Source of the DNA: a virus
Taxonomy: Duplodnaviria > Heunggongvirae > Uroviricota > Caudoviricetes
DNA length: 17,708 bases
Strand: one strand, 5' to 3'
IMG/VR virus record: IMGVR_UViG_2706794691_000004
The position numbers and the translations under genes are program-made. Position 1 is the stretch's first letter; each line of letters starts with the position of its first letter. The notes beneath the pieces are model-generated. The model did no database searches. It was not told the DNA's origin and worked only from the letters and a program-made list of their open reading frames with translations. This document shows, piece by piece, positions 3,302-17,708 of the stretch.

Positions 3302-6300
3302 TTAGCCACTTAACATTCCCCCATCACGTCGCATATTTAACAGATTGCCCTGCACCCGCTGATCAACCATCCCCATAAGTGCTTTTATTGCCTGAGGGCC
3401 AATCTCTCCATTCTGGCCGTCATTTTGAATAGTGATTTGGTATACAGGGGCATAGGTAATATCTCCGCCTCCATTACCACTTTTACTATTAATAGCTCTG
3501 ACACCAAGAGAACCATCGGAAGTTCGTGTTAATGGCATAATGGCTTCCGGTCCAGCCTCACCAAAAACACCAGCCCCTTTTGCAAAAGCAAAAAATTGCG
3601 GGGAATCATAAATACCGTTCGAATACGTGCTCAATGACGGAGACTCATAAACACCGCCCTTTGCATTCGGAATAAATTTACTAATAGCACTCCCGATAGT
3701 TCCTAAAATCCCCCCAGAAGAACTGTTACTAATGCTGTCGAAAATCCCAGTAATTGAAGCCTTTAATGCTATTCGACTAAGATCCGAAATCACGGAAGTA
3801 GCGAAAGAACGAAAATTTGCCTTGCCTGTCGTGACAAAATCACCCAGCGCATCGGTCATCCCATCAAACATCTGAGTCGTGGTTGATTTTATCTGCTCAC
3901 TGATATCCTTAGTGTCATCCAGCCAGTTATTGAATCCCTGGGAGGCACCACTAACCCAGTCTCCTGCCTGAATATCGAGCTGCTCGTTTTTCTGTCTGAC
4001 AATTTCTTTTTCCCGTTCCAGAGCATCATTCAGAGCCTGCATTTTCTCTTGAAAAACATGATCTGACATTCCACGGGATTTATCTGCATAGTCACGTTCA
4101 AGTTGCAGACGCTGATTGTTATATCCATGTTCAATCCGCAGTAATTCCTGCTGGCGNNNNNNNNNNNNNNNNNNNNNNNNNNNNNNNNNNNNNNNNNNNN
4201 NNNNNNNNNNNNNNNNNNNNNNNNNNNNNNNNNNNNNNNNNNNNNNNNNNNNNNNNNNNNNNNNNNNNNNNNNNNNNNNNNNNNNNNNNNNNNNNNNNNN
4301 NNNNNNNNNNNNNNNNNNNNNNNNNNNNNNNNNNNNNNNNNNNNNNNNNNNNNNNNNNNNNNNNNNNNNNNNNNNNNNNNNNNNNNNNNNNNNNNNNNNN
4401 NNNNNNNNNNNCCACTTAACCAGTTCCTGTTCAGAGGAACTTAATTTAACGGTCAACTCAGCTTGTGAACTTAGTAACGCATTCTGTTGATTCAGATGAT
4501 CAATCATTCGTTGGGCTGCATCATCAGAATAACCTTTCGCCTTTGGTTGCTTTGGATCTTTATAACGCTCATTTATTTGAGCGATAAGATTATTATATTC
4601 TTCCTTTGAATACTGATTCTTTAGCTTTTCCAGTTTTGCAAGTTCACTAGCTCTCTGCTGCTCCCGGGTCTGATATTGTTTTGAAAAGGCATCTGCTCTC
4701 TGTCTGAGTTCAATTCCTTCCTGTTGTCGCTTGTTGTAATCGTTTATTGATGAATTTAGTACGTCCTGAGCAATTTTTTCTGCTTGAAGTACGCCCAATT
4801 GCTGCTTTAATCGTGCCAGCCTTTTATTTTGAGCTCCGCCATCTCCAATGCCACCTAACCCGAAAACTCCGGGTCGGGTATTTTTTTCTATTTCATCAAT
4901 TTGACGGAGAACATCTGAGATTTTTTGATCAAGGGAGGCCTCACGGCCAATATCCAGCATGGAATCCCATGCCCATTTTGCGGAGTCTGCGACAGCTTTC
5001 CATGCAGTCTCAAGATAACCAAGATTTTCTTTAATCTGGTTGGTGCGCTGGATCATTGAGGATGAGTATTCTTCTGTCGCAATGCGGGCGGCCTCCTGCT
5101 GGTTCCCTTCATCCTGTAGCGCCTTAATCTGGTTATAAGTCGCAAGTGTCAGAAAATGGTACTGATCATTAAGTTTTGATATGGCACTGACAGGATCCTT
5201 TGCAATTTCATTGAAGTCATTAACCAGTTGTTCGGTTGATATTCCTGTTACTTCGCTCGTTTTTACTATCGCTGTCGTCACTTGCTCCAGCGAACTGCTC
5301 GCTACCTTTCCCGAACGCACAAGCTGATTTAATACTGCCGCCGCAGCACCAGTTGTCGAATCAGCCGCATTCCCGGCACGTTGAGCTATATCGCCCAATT
5401 GCCCGCTGGTTGTCCCCAACTGATTTCCGGTAAGAATAAGAGATTTATTAAATTCGTCCTGCTCCTGAGAGCCTTTATAGTAAGCCAGTCCTAAGACCCC
5501 AACGGCTGCTGCGGCCAGGGTAAAAGGATTAATTAATCCCAGCACATAAGAACCTACACCTTTGATCGCCGGGCCAATCCCACCGAACATATCTTTTAGC
5601 TGGCCGCCCTGCTGCATTAACACCATAAATGGCGACTGACCAGTGGACAACCCAACAACAATATCCGTCATTTGTACAGGCAACATGCGCATAGCAAAAG
5701 CCGTTTGTTTTGCCGACATTCCGGTTTTGCTTAATTGTGATTGAGTAACCTCAAGCTCACTCCGCATAGCACGAAGTTTTCCAGAAAGCTCCTCATACAT
5801 TTCAGGAGAAAGCATCCCCTTAGCTTTTGCTTCATTGAGCTGTTTCTGTTGTTCTACCAGACGATTAAAAGCAGTTCCGACAGGATCAAGTTGAGCAATC
5901 AGACGTTGCAAAGCAACAACCTGTTCATCATGCGCTTTTGCTGCTTCTCGCTCTGCCTGAGCCTCTCCGGTAAGCTCTCGCCGTGTTTCCTGTATTTTTC
6001 GGCTATAATTCTCAAACTGAGAACCATTTATTTTCCCGGATGCAAACGCAGCATTAAGTTCATCATGCTGTTGTTCAAGATTTCTTAGCGCCGCAGCCAG
6101 AGGGTCGATCTTGTCCAGCATTCTTTGAAAGGCCTGAGCCTGCGCTTNNNNNNNNNNNNNNNNNNNNNNNNNNNNNNNNNNNNNNNNNNNNNNNNNNNNN
6201 NNNNNNNNNNNNNNNNNNNNNNNNNNNNNNNNNNNNNNNNNNNNNNNNNNNNNNNNNNNNNNNNNNNNNNNNNNNNNNNNNNNNNNNNNNNNNNNNNNNN

Positions 6301-7538: not shown

Positions 7539-8301
7539 TCAACTAATCGCCTCAGCACTGGCTTTTGCGATCACGGCAGCCGGGGAATTTTTTTTTCTGG
7601 TTATCGTAGGTGCTTCATCTGCTGCGGTAATGCTCAATTGAACCTGGATAATGTCGCTATTACCCCCATCAGGCCATTCACCTGACACCTGAACCTTCGG
7701 GAAACTGAAAGTGTATGCCCCCTCTCCATTCGAAAGCGTGAAGCTGAACGGAACTGTTTCTCCAGTCAGTGTTTTACTCCAGATTTCCCACGCGGCTTTA
7801 GACCATGANNNNNNNNNNNNNNNNNNNNNNNNNNNNNNNNNNNNNNNNNNNNNNNNNNNNNNNNNNNNNNNNNNNNNNNNNNNNNNNNNNNNNNNNNNNN
7901 NNNNNNNNNNNNNNNNNNNNNNNNNNNNNNNNNNNNNNNNNNNNNNNNNNNNNNNNNNNNNNNNNNNNNNNNNNNNNNNNNNNNNNNNNNNNNNNNNNNN
8001 NNNNNNNNNNNNNNNNNNNNNNNNNNNNNNNNNNNNNNNNNNNNNNNNNNNNNNNNNNNNNNNNNNNNNNNNNTTGACCCCAGCGAAATTTGGTACCAAC
8101 ATCACCGCCGACATCCACAGTGCCAGGCGTCGCCCCCTGAGCCATCCGGGAGCCACCAATCTCATTATTTTCGCCTTTATTCTGGGTGGGTTTTACTCCC
8201 CAGCTTGTGCGTTTTAATAAACTCCAGTCACCACTTGCTGGCGTAGTGCCTGCAACCGTCTCCCGGATAAATGCCGAGATAACCTTTGCACCTGAACTCA
8301 C
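7539..8301 (-). CDS. Major tail (tube) protein, interrupted by an N run
   Basis: GTG start at 8301 with AGGAGG 6 nt upstream (MSSGAKVISAFIRETVAGTT...); C-terminal segment ...FSFTLSNGEGAYTFSFPKVQVSGEWPDGGNSDIIQVQLSITAADEAPTI; located directly upstream of the chaperone gene. Frames differ across the N run at 7809..8073. Confidence 0.7.
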
Positions 8302-9491: not shown

Positions 9492-9803
9492 TCACAACCC
9501 TGACTTGTGAGCGACTAAGTCCGTACGGNNNNNNNNNNNNNNNNNNNNNNNNNNNNNNNNNNNNNNNNNNNNNNNNNNNNNNNNNNNNNNNNNNNNNNNN
9601 NNNNNNNNNNNNNNNNNNNNNNNNNNNNNNNNNNNNNNNNNNNNNNNNNNNNNNNNNNNNNNNNNNNNNNNNNNNNNNNNNNNNNNNNNNNNNNNNNNNN
9701 NNNNNNNNNNNNNNNNNNNNNNNNNNNNNNNNNNNNNNNNNNNNNNNNNNNNNNNNNNNNNNNNNNNNNNNNNNNNNNNNNNNNNNNNNNNNNNAGTGAT
9801 CAT
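9492..9803 (-). CDS. Probable head-tail adaptor, almost entirely masked
   Basis: ATG at 9803 preceded by GGAG; only MIT... and ...RTDLVAHKSGL are readable; rest is N (9529..9794). Confidence 0.3.
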   Translation of the reverse strand: MITXXXXXXXXXXXXXXXXXXXXXXXXXXXXXXXXXXXXXXXXXXXXXXXXXXXXXXXXXXXXXXXXXXXXXXXXXXXXXXXXXXXXXXXXXRTDLVAHKSGL

Positions 9804-14660: not shown

Positions 14661-15971
14661 TTAAATCCGAAGTGATGTGACTCTTCCGGTCGGTTTGACA
14701 ATAGGGAATTGCTTAACGATGAAATAACCTCCGGCATCATTCGGGTGATCATTGCCAGATTTTTTATCAGGCTCCCCCTTCTCATCCCAGACCTGTTGCT
14801 CCAGAGATTCGGCATATAACGGGCAACGCTTCACATTAACTTTATAGCGACGCTCACCATTGGCATTGCAGAACATTGCATTCATTGAGTTAACGCGATC
14901 TTTTACTGGCGGGTTCGAGCTGTTCACCACAACGTTAAAACCAGCCTGCTTAAGCTGGGCTATATCCGTCGTACTTGCGTTACTTGATTTTCTGGAATCC
15001 CCGGAAGCATCTGGATAAATATAAATTTCCCTCACTTTCCGGTAATCATTCCCATCATACAGCCAGAAGCGTTCTTTAATGATGCGGATCATATCCGGCG
15101 TATCGTAGGCATTGATGATTTCAGTTACCGCACATGGAAGCCCCAAACGCAGCACATGGACGATTCCCGCCATCTTTCCAACGTTAAAATCCATCCCAAT
15201 ATAAATCGGCTCCCCTGGCTGCTCCACTTCTTCGCAATTATTCAGTTTCCGGTCAAACTGATGGTAAACAGTACCACTTGTCAGGTTAGTAAACTGTCCT
15301 CGAAGATAGGCTTTAATCAGCTCTGGAGGGTATGATTCAAGAAGCGAAGGAATGTAATCTGCTGGCAGGTTCTTTTCATTATCGAAAGTAGATGCCTGCA
15401 CCAGACCATACAGTGAGGCCAGCTCTGTTTTTTCACGCACGGCTTTAACAAACTGCTCGTAGACAAATTTGAATCCTTCCGGCGTGGTTGTAACGTCAAT
15501 ACCGTTGCGAAGTCCATCAATCTTATAACGCATACGTGCAATTATCTTGCGCCACGCCGTTCTGGCTTTTTCCTTCGGCAAAATGTCCAGTTCATCCACC
15601 AACGCATTACCAATTTTGAAACCGACGATCGTTTGTGGCTTCTCCATCGATCTGCAGATAGTGGTTCCCCGATACTGGCGTCCGTAATAAAAGTGAACCT
15701 CTTTATTTCCCTCATTAATTTTTACGTTCAATCCCCAGTCAGCAGCAACTTCTTCCACTGTAGGGTAAAAAATATCGCGAATTTGGGGATACGTTGGCGC
15801 AAAATATCCCTGATTTATACCTGGATGCTCCCAAATCCCCTTGCATATGCCGCCACACCCAACCCATGTTTTGCCCGAGCCAAAACCAGCAATATAGGCT
15901 TTAAATTTATGGGGCATTGAAAGAAATCGCGCCTGAGGCACATTAAGCGTCGGAGAGATCATCTTCATCAC
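14661..15971 (-). CDS. Terminase large subunit
   Basis: 436-aa ORF with Walker A AYIAGFGSGKT near the N-terminus and acidic motifs (VDELD; YIYPDASGD) consistent with ATPase and nuclease domains. Confidence 0.85.
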   Translation of the reverse strand: MMKMISPTLNVPQARFLSMPHKFKAYIAGFGSGKTWVGCGGICKGIWEHPGINQGYFAPTYPQIRDIFYPTVEEVAADWGLNVKINEGNKEVHFYYGRQYRGTTICRSMEKPQTIVGFKIGNALVDELDILPKEKARTAWRKIIARMRYKIDGLRNGIDVTTTPEGFKFVYEQFVKAVREKTELASLYGLVQASTFDNEKNLPADYIPSLLESYPPELIKAYLRGQFTNLTSGTVYHQFDRKLNNCEEVEQPGEPIYIGMDFNVGKMAGIVHVLRLGLPCAVTEIINAYDTPDMIRIIKERFWLYDGNDYRKVREIYIYPDASGDSRKSSNASTTDIAQLKQAGFNVVVNSSNPPVKDRVNSMNAMFCNANGERRYKVNVKRCPLYAESLEQQVWDEKGEPDKKSGNDHPNDAGGYFIVKQFPIVKPTGRVTSLRI

Positions 15972-17044
15972 TCCTTACTCTGGCATCAACCACATTAATA
16001 TTGATCGCCACAGGCTGGGGATGTTCATTATCTTCCACCGTTTCGATCTCTTTGCGCAGCTTCTGGTTTTCCATTCTGCGCCGTTCAATTTCCAGTTCCC
16101 GTAGCCGCTTATCTGCACATAAAGCCCCGCCAGCAGAAAACAAACGCAACAATTCACGCCGGGCGGCAGCCTTATCCTCCAGCAGGATCTCAACGCCGAA
16201 TTTTCCGAATTTTGCCCCTGCATATAATTGCCGCGCATCCCCATCAAGCAGAGTGGTATCAGCCATATAAAGCTGTCCCGTTCCCTCACCGCAGCACTTC
16301 GGGCAGTCCGGATTGGGTATGGCGTTATCAACAAAGCCGAGGCCTCCATATTCCGGTTCGGGTTTGCCATCTCTGGAAGCCTGCGCCGCTGCCTTGTCGA
16401 ATTCTGCTATATCGCGCCACTGGTAGAGATGATTCTCGCCCCAGCAATAACGGCAGTTAACACGGCGAAATTGTGCAAGCTGATTGGGGTCGGCCAGGAC
16501 AATAGCCATCAACTGACTCACTAGTAAATCCAGGTCTGCGGTATAGCGTTTCTGGTACTGATTGCGGAAGTAGCTGANNNNNNNNNNNNNNNNNNNNNNN
16601 NNNNNNNNNNNNNNNNNNNNNNNNNNNNNNNNNNNNNNNNNNNNNNNNNNNNNNNNNNNNNNNNNNNNNNNNNNNNNNNNNNNNNNNNNNNNNNNNNNNN
16701 NNNNNNNNNNNNNNNNNNNNNNNNNNNNNNNNNNNNNNNNNNNNNNNNNNNNNNNNNNNNNNNNNNNNNNNNNNNNNNNNNNNNNNNNNNNNNNNNNNNN
16801 NNNNNNNNNNNNNNNNNNNNNNNNNNNNNNNNNNNTGTGCAGTCTGCGCAGATTTTTTCTGCGCACTTTTTTGCGCAGTTTTGCACATTTCTGTCTGCGC
16901 ATTTTTCGGAGTTTTTTTGATGTAACGACGGGCTGTTGCGTAATTCAGTCCCCTTGCTTCACACCATGCCACCGGAGATATACCGGAGCGGGTGTATTCA
17001 GCAATATACTCCTGCTGCAACGCCCCCCAGTCCGGTCTGCTCAT
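15943..17044 (-). CDS. Terminase small subunit (N-terminal HTH segment plus Cys-rich C-terminal segment; may be two genes)
   Basis: N-terminus MSRPDWGALQQEYIAEYTRSGISPVAWCEARGLNYATARRYIKK resembles a small-terminase HTH; after the N run the ORF encodes CRYCW...DCPKCCGEG and a basic coiled tail ...RLRELEIERRRMENQKLRKEIE, overlapping the large terminase start. Frames differ across the N run at 16578..16835. Confidence 0.55.
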
Positions 17045-17047
17045 CAG

Positions 17048-17708
17048 TTAGTCCTGATTTTTATCCACCCTGAGTAGTTCGCGCAGAGCAAAGGCATCCC
17101 CTTTTCTGGCAAGCTTAAACAATGCCGCTCGTAACTCGGCTNNNNNNNNNNNNNNNNNNNNNNNNNNNNNNNNNNNNNNNNNNNNNNNNNNNNNNNNNNN
17201 NNNNNNNNNNNNNNNNNNNNNNNNNNNNNNNNNNNNNNNNNNNNNNNNNNNNNNNNNNNNNNNNNNNNNNNNNNNNNNNNNNNNNNNNNNNNNNNNNNNN
17301 NNNNNNNNNNNNNNNNNNNNNNNNNNNNNNNNNNNNNNNNNNNNNNNNNNNNNNNNNNNNNNNNNNNNNNNNNNNNNNNNNNNNNNNNNNNNNNNNNNNN
17401 NNNNNNNNNNNNNNNNNNGACTGGCACCCATAAGTGAGATTTTTACGCACGACGGCGCATACATGACGGAGTAAAAACTTTTAACGTAGGTTCCGGAATC
17501 CAGATACAGCTCGGTCATTCCGCCGCTGTTTTTCTGCGTCTGTTTCTGCCCTAACTGGACAGCACCGATCGTCATAAACAATTCACCACAGCGACCGAGA
17601 TTCGTGTACGTATTCACATCCTCGTTAATGCGCCCCATGAATGAGAACGGTCGATCAACCGAACAGATAAAGCTGTTCATTGCCTTGCGTTTCACCCACG
17701 AAGCATGG
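17048..17708 (-). CDS. Hypothetical protein upstream of the small terminase, function unassigned
   Basis: Minus-strand ORF; the track's start at 17695 is a GTG and the frame is still open at the window edge, so the gene may begin outside the window; readable part ...KRKAMNSFICSVDRPFSFMGRINEDVNTYTNLGRCGELFMTIGAVQLGQ...; stop is 1 nt before the small terminase ATG; contains the N run 17142..17418. Confidence 0.4.
   Translation of the reverse strand, partial: HASWVKRKAMNSFICSVDRPFSFMGRINEDVNTYTNLGRCGELFMTIGAVQLGQKQTQKNSGGMTELYLDSGTYVKSFYSVMYAPSCVKISLMGASXXXXXXXXXXXXXXXXXXXXXXXXXXXXXXXXXXXXXXXXXXXXXXXXXXXXXXXXXXXXXXXXXXXXXXXXXXXXXXXXXXXXXXXXXXXXXAELRAALFKLARKGDAFALRELLRVDKNQD

Follow-up and report, generated by a model that had tools for sequence, protein, structure and literature searches.

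A long phage small terminase with a conserved four-cysteine module inserted into its Terminase_2 domain

The gene on the minus strand from 17044 to 15943 of the virus record IMGVR_UViG_2706794691_000004 (Caudoviricetes; 17,708 nucleotides, here called the window) encodes a small terminase (TerS) of 364 residues. The protein is a Terminase_2 small terminase of the SF6/SPP1 G1P type. Inside its Terminase_2 domain it carries an insertion with two CxxC knuckles, hereafter the Cys4 module. The module sits at the tip of the hairpin by which the ring is formed, before the native β-hairpin. As the four cysteines are invariant in 139 of 139 intact representatives of the family, the pattern is far beyond chance. 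Probably, the gene as a whole is best described as a single TerS gene carrying an inserted structural zinc module.

The preliminary description of the window had delimited the open reading frame (ORF) correctly (15943–17044, about 365 residues) and left two options: a small terminase of non-canonical type, or a pair of genes whose boundary is hidden by a run of N. The frame opened by the ATG at 17044 begins MSRPDWGALQQEYIAEYTRSGISPVAWCEARGLNYATARRYIKK, the frame closed by the TAA at 15943–15945 contains CRYCW...CPKCC, and 258 N (16578–16835) separate the two visible frames. Read literally across this mask, the halves are in different frames; the N-terminal frame meets stops after the mask and the C-terminal stop-bounded frame begins at 16902. 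This reading would give two products, a short protein with a helix-turn-helix (HTH) and a separate one rich in Cys. However, in an alignment of the window to Escherichia coli EC2, 251 real bases stand in the place of the 258 N, and the flanks agree (100% identity) at each of the 1184 bases visible in this region. The apparent frame disagreement thus results from a mask that is 7 nt too long. With the hidden 251 bases taken from relatives (EC2), not from the window itself, the ORF is unbroken, contains neither a stop nor a restart and has a length of 1095 nt (364 residues) as compared to 1102 positions in the window.

A megablast search with positions 15700–17141 gave matches in 899 of 5426 complete E. 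coli genomes and in 12 phage records. In the best matches the visible bases are 100% identical and the span is 1435 nt, not 1442 nt. The locus covers at least 80% of the query in 763 E. coli genomes. RefSeq lists the EC2 protein (WP_024240905.1) as a single gene, 'terminase small subunit', and the same holds for ten phage records; full-length proteins of 364 residues are abundant, the 90%-identity cluster comprising 1423 member sequences. Absent a strain-specific mutation, 17044 to 15943 is therefore one TerS gene, and a gene boundary within the mask has next to no probability. Of the two proposals, the non-canonical small terminase is the one that stands.

The window contains eight N runs in all (for example 7809–8073, 9529–9794 and 16578–16835). 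Seven of these were compared with EC2: in six the length differs by between −200 and +20 nt, and in 4157–4411 the difference is zero. Frames and distances across any mask of the window are therefore unreliable, and the literal reading was dropped, as mask lengths differ from the lengths of the hidden sequence.

Assignment to Terminase_2 is based on several comparisons. The Pfam profile Terminase_2 (PF03592) is matched with 34.5 bits (gathering cutoff 26.1), and over its whole length (residues 1–364) the protein matches PHROG 51, a terminase small subunit family of 261 positions, with an E-value of 7e-75. The visible C-terminal 210 residues were searched against 1.84 billion representatives clustered at 50% identity, giving 1520 matches at E≤1e-3 and 1045 at E≤1e-10. 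From the 150 top-scoring representatives a family profile and alignment of 144 sequences was built; Terminase_2 is matched by 138 of these 144 relatives (best E 1.1e-40). The profile finds the solved small terminase SF6 G1P (3zqp) with an E-value of 1.8e-16, and 21di (9e-13) and 4zc3 (1.7e-10) follow. With the single sequence, the search of the PDB yielded only an E-value of 0.22, to Pam5 TerS. Foldseek matches of the full model in the PDB are weak and comprise TerS and HTH structures (2ao9, 7joq and 4zc3, E≥0.3; TMt of 0.73 for 4zc3). By profile and Foldseek, the HTH domain is homologous to DNA-binding domains of solved small terminases.

The canonical small terminase consists of an HTH, an α4-α5 hairpin, a β-barrel strand and a tail (PMC7672466). 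Small terminases of this type assemble into rings, usually nonamers, bind pac DNA and stimulate the large terminase. The two-helix hairpin, the β element and the C-terminal tail are all present in the window protein, with the hairpin interrupted by the insertion. Residues 122–321 align to Terminase_2 profile positions 19–129, which leaves about 89 extra residues inside the domain. Correspondingly, SF6 G1P is matched in two stretches: profile positions 19–98 correspond to residues 21–101 of the 3zqp chain (HTH domain and first core helix) and positions 195–230 to residues 117–152 (β-hairpin and second core helix). Between both stretches lie about 15 residues in G1P versus about 95 in the Cys-bearing family. 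Set on the canonical layout, this two-piece match locates the insertion at the hairpin tip. The cysteine cluster had been taken for a feature of the C-terminal segment; it belongs instead to the interior of Terminase_2.

A model of the protein was calculated with AlphaFold2 from the 144-sequence alignment. Its mean predicted local distance difference test (pLDDT) is 85.5 and reaches 98 over residues 180–290. In the model, the Terminase_2 HTH comprises residues 99–146. It is hidden by the mask (16578–16835, minus strand), which covers residues ~70–154 with the acidic linker and this canonical HTH (FGISDQQAKFAMLVAQGKKPTEAYRLAGY...). The first core helix (α4, residues 148–181; pLDDT 93–98) emerges from the mask with its C-terminal part (16495–16577, minus strand), which aligns to residues 87–101 of SF6 G1P. 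The Cys4 module follows with residues 183–271 (16225–16491, minus strand), the ~89 residues beyond the Pfam profile. Its predicted elements are strand 188–193, knuckle 1, helix 210–222, knuckle 2, strand 253–258 and helix 266–271. Modeled alone (residues 178–292), the putative zinc-binding module has a pLDDT of 95.4.

Residues 272–286 (16180–16224, minus strand) form the β-hairpin native to the Terminase_2 core, with predicted strands 272–278 and 281–286; here the match to SF6 G1P resumes from residue 117. The second core helix continues into a basic coiled tail (residues 289–336; 16030–16173, minus strand) and corresponds to G1P 117–152, its pLDDT falling to 67 around residue 305. The helical tail overlapping the start of the large terminase (TerL) gene had been recognized from the window sequence, and helix 289–336 and a 20 nt gene overlap agree with it. 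In the monomer model the C-terminal segment (residues 337–364; 15946–16029, minus strand, the last 20 nt overlapping the TerL start) has a pLDDT of only 53–57. By analogy to the layout of PaP3 TerS (PMC7672466), its stretch PQPVAININVV is a candidate β-barrel strand of the ring. The sequence SDEDDLSDA after it is an acidic tail.

The first knuckle (C195-R-Y-C198; 16444–16455, minus strand) and the second (C245-P-K-C248-C249, of CPxCxGxG type; 16291–16305, minus strand) are conserved together across the family. The 139 intact representatives (50% identity clusters) result from leaving out five frameshifted or truncated variants. Among them C195, R196, C198, G200, C245 and C248 are present in 139 of 139, G231, G232, G250 and G252 in 138 and P246 in 130. 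In the complete alignment C195 and C198 are found in 144 of 144 sequences, C245 in 139 and C248 in 141. The five exceptions all come from E. coli; these variants have 93–99% identity up to the frameshift or truncation. Conservation of the cysteines had been named beforehand as the test on which the proposed cluster would stand or fall. Four of the five cysteines in the originally described pattern CRYCW...CPKCC pass this test; C249, the second C of 'CC', occurs in only 16/139 and is not part of it. The module signature reads RRxxCR[YH]C[WHY]G..H.YQW ... P..GG[YF]G[FY] ... P[NH]PxCPxCxG[ED]G ... DT, and the conserved core can also be written DPN..RR..CRxCxG..H.YQW...E / P..GGxGF / PNPxCPxCxGxG...DT. 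The knuckles are 46 residues apart in the window protein and 46–61 across the family.

Compared to Pfam, the module alone matches no family, even at E≤10. The preliminary description had suggested a zinc ribbon. The two CxxC knuckles are indeed there, but the structure search against the PDB finds no solved zinc ribbon that matches the module model, and the signature is nearest to the CxxCxGxG knuckle of DnaJ and anti-TRAP. This motif (Pfam DnaJ_CXXCXGXG, PF00684) is touched by 7 of the 144 relatives, and weak PDB profile matches lie on anti-TRAP-type knuckles. The module shares with the DnaJ cysteine-rich domain the CxxCxGxG of its second knuckle and two knuckles that presumably share one zinc ion. 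In contrast to DnaJ, it has two motifs (one center) instead of four and no final G in the first of them, a helical insert of 46 residues separates the knuckles, and the module has neither a Pfam nor a structural match. With only the two motifs CRYCWGEN and CPKCCGEG and a module outside Pfam, membership in the DnaJ cysteine-rich type was rejected. Foldseek against BFVD returned only TerS proteins, and the TerS of phage Itty13 superposes on the module with a TM score of 0.94. A word-indexed search with the module-only profile gave 23 matches, mostly fragments, and is uninformative on occurrence of the module in other contexts. Searches of the full-text literature yielded no account of zinc sites in small terminases of phages; as the coverage is incomplete, this absence is no proof. 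As far as found, the module is undescribed in the literature searched and has no solved counterpart.

Most likely, the four cysteines are the ligands of a single structural Zn2+. This is suggested by the invariant cysteines in two knuckles, the cytoplasmic nature of the protein and the confidently compact model. The zinc ion would tie both knuckles together. The helical hairpin (148–181 and 289–336) would assemble the ring and the HTH (~105–146) would bind DNA, while the C-terminal strand and acidic tail would lie next to TerL, whose gene overlaps. The modules would add a crown to such a ring, on the end that faces away from the β-barrel and tail. Tentatively, we assign to this crown at the hairpin tip a structural, oligomer-stabilizing role: it would set the geometry of the HTH ring and would be neither the main DNA reader nor a TerL-specific dock. 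This role is favored because the module is mildly acidic and is kept while the TerL family changes. Several points weigh against this assignment. The module is placed in the ring by homology, and zinc binding is predicted. The best-scoring 150 representatives favor sequences that retain conserved residues. Finally, the basic residues R191, R192 and R196 form a strictly conserved patch beside knuckle 1, which is a possible DNA contact.

This patch leads to the best surviving rival, according to which the module would act as a zinc finger, a second element for DNA binding that helps to recognize or wrap the pac region. In the literature found, zinc fingers are reported only for pUL28 and pUL56 of the herpesvirus terminase (PMC9611059), and these TerS-like subunits would be the precedent. 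Like TerS they are accessory subunits of a terminase, but their sequence and size are unrelated (~85 kDa, all-α) and the comparison is an analogy only. R191, R192 and R196 are conserved or invariant, K276 is conserved as well, and the module and the flexible HTH domains probably share one side of the hairpin. On the other hand, the module has a median net charge of −2 (range −10 to +7) as compared to +3.5 for the HTH domain, and a consistently basic surface is missing. Furthermore, the module has no similarity to DNA-binding zinc-finger families in Pfam or the PDB, and the protein already contains two HTH domains. We consider a DNA-reading zinc finger unlikely.

Alternatively, the module may be a docking or regulatory surface for TerL, the portal or a host factor, similar to the zinc centers of DnaJ. 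The CPxCxGxG motif of the DnaJ cysteine-rich type and the mildly acidic surface are compatible with protein contacts. But the module remains 40–60% identical even among proteins whose TerL partners come from unrelated families, and in characterized small terminases TerL is bound by the C-terminal tail rather than by the hairpin tip (PMC7672466). We consider docking improbable. A degenerate or active HNH-type endonuclease is far less probable still: HNH nucleases of the [CxxC]2 zinc type have two CxxC pairs and associate with terminases (PMC3592412), and H203 follows knuckle 1, but this histidine is present in only 99/139 (otherwise F, N, Y or G), a conserved Asn or second His is missing, the second CxxC is followed by GxG instead of His, the spacing of 46–61 residues is too long, and neither a Pfam match at E≤10 nor a bba-Me structural match was found. 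Lacking the catalytic residues, the Pfam match and the fold, the module was rejected as a member of the HNH endonucleases. The structural crown remains our preferred, tentative assignment.

Relatives with the same scaffold and Cys4 module are the small terminases of Pseudomonas phage F116, of Itty13, of the Burkholderia phages Bcep22, BcepIL02 and BcepB1A and of Erwinia phage PEp14. They are 33–41% identical to the window protein over residues ~104–298, and F116 and Bcep22 TerS share the same insertion within Terminase_2. The F116/Bcep22-type proteins are annotated simply as small terminase. In contrast to the window protein, TerS of the F116/Itty13/Bcep22 type has 249–271 residues, lacks the ~100 N-terminal residues with HTH and linker and is paired with other TerL types. 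The TerL of F116 (543 residues) has no Pfam match and no BLASTP similarity to the Terminase_6N/6C TerL of the window. The TerS gene of Bcep22 is not adjacent to any TerL gene.

SF6/SPP1 G1P (3ZQP/3ZQQ, 4ZC3) is the closest characterized type. The HTH, the first core helix, the β-hairpin and the second core helix are homologous, and the G1P gene is likewise located directly upstream of the TerL gene. G1P differs in its length (164 residues), in having ~15 residues at the position of the ~90-residue Cys4 module, and in lacking the extra N-terminal HTH and linker. The unusual length noted for the window protein is thereby accounted for. Solved relatives have 134–164 residues and the Cys-bearing family has a median of 259, compared to 364 in the window protein, which is composed of a ~165-residue G1P-like scaffold, the ~90-residue family-wide module and a lineage-specific HTH and linker of ~100 residues.

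An HTH-like N-terminus had been noticed in the visible sequence and is found in the model: residues 1–45 (16910–17044, minus strand) form helices 6–20, 24–30 and 35–38 with a pLDDT of 86–94. They match the N-termini of the TerS PHROGs 370, 2606 and 1711 and, weakly and below the cutoff, the HTH of IS66 TnpA (E 4e-4). A K/Q-rich linker helix follows (residues 49–71, pLDDT 60–76); its visible part, residues 46–69, is encoded by 16836–16909 on the minus strand. Residues 72–98 are predicted to be a disordered acidic linker. In the Cys-bearing family, the Terminase_2 HTH is preceded by 14 residues (median), and only 24 of the 144 relatives have an N-terminal extension of at least 80 residues. N-terminal HTH domains in relatives are of different Pfam types (HTH_50, HTH_38, HTH_23, HTH_Tnp_1 and DUF1804). 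The varied types in the same N-terminal place point to recurrent modular acquisition.

Just past the part coding for the N-terminal HTH, five copies of TGYGCARA are located on the same strand within 59 bp (16843–16901, minus strand). They are 9–15 bp apart with A-tracts between them, and one copy is in a different codon phase. Further copies are at 16051–16058 and 16112–16119. All eight matches of the window are inside the TerS gene, compared to 3.4 expected over the whole 17.7 kb. In the TerS gene of Yersinia phage vB_YenM_29.18 (43% identical), four copies of TGCGAAT are found in the same place. Judged from the sequence, the array is either a candidate pac or TerS-binding array or merely a linker repeat (SAQK) born by slippage. 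In a broader and quite doubtful proposal, an undescribed zinc fold would form a second ring that reads or bends pac, and the array would be the pac site read by the N-terminal HTH. If true, this would be a three-sensor small terminase, which F116, a transducing phage, would have in common with about one sixth of the complete E. coli genomes.

The selection by small terminases of the DNA to be packaged, and hence transduced, is still incompletely understood, and the solved TerS structures are all rings of HTH and helical hairpin with 134–164 residues. The subfamily delimited here comprises more than 1000 clusters at 50% identity and includes the generalized transducing phage F116, Bcep22-like phages and a prophage in 899 of 5426 E. 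coli genomes. With an invariant four-cysteine domain on the ring-forming hairpin it is a defined structural target. For annotation, the module is a separable domain that is at present absorbed by Pfam as an insertion. The basic picture is unchanged: annotation of the gene as a small terminase is correct, and it represents an undescribed variant, of modest interest, of a well-known protein type.

The TerS gene is located between a gene for a hypothetical protein of 69 residues and the TerL gene, in a Rac-like prophage near trkG and ynaK. The TerL gene (14661–15962, minus strand; RefSeq CDS) matches Terminase_6N (E 3.6e-33) and Terminase_6C (E 3.3e-10) of Pfam, and its ATG at 15962 is inside the 3' end of the TerS gene. 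Downstream of it are genes for the portal, a minor head protein and a P22-type capsid protein, a head-morphogenesis context as expected for TerS. The host element is a Rac-like siphovirus prophage of E. coli that probably packages by the headful (pac) mechanism.

Two genes upstream of TerS (window ~17115–17708, minus strand; L001:1975-2907), a gene is annotated as 'GREB1-related protein' and resembles TET-associated glycosyltransferases; it is preceded by ynaK, a gene with a ParB/Srx domain. It may be a DNA-modification gene beside the packaging module. Two assembly-derived proteins of 565 residues (P0025, P0033) join the Pfam domains TAGT and Terminase_2 and are probably read-through calls. 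The EC2 copy of the prophage is defective, because its tail tube gene is frameshifted and its tape-measure gene is split by IS1 (L006: 9988-10949, 11933-15943). At the expected position of the tape-measure gene, the window has an uninterrupted ORF of 939 residues (3302–6121) with a mask inside.

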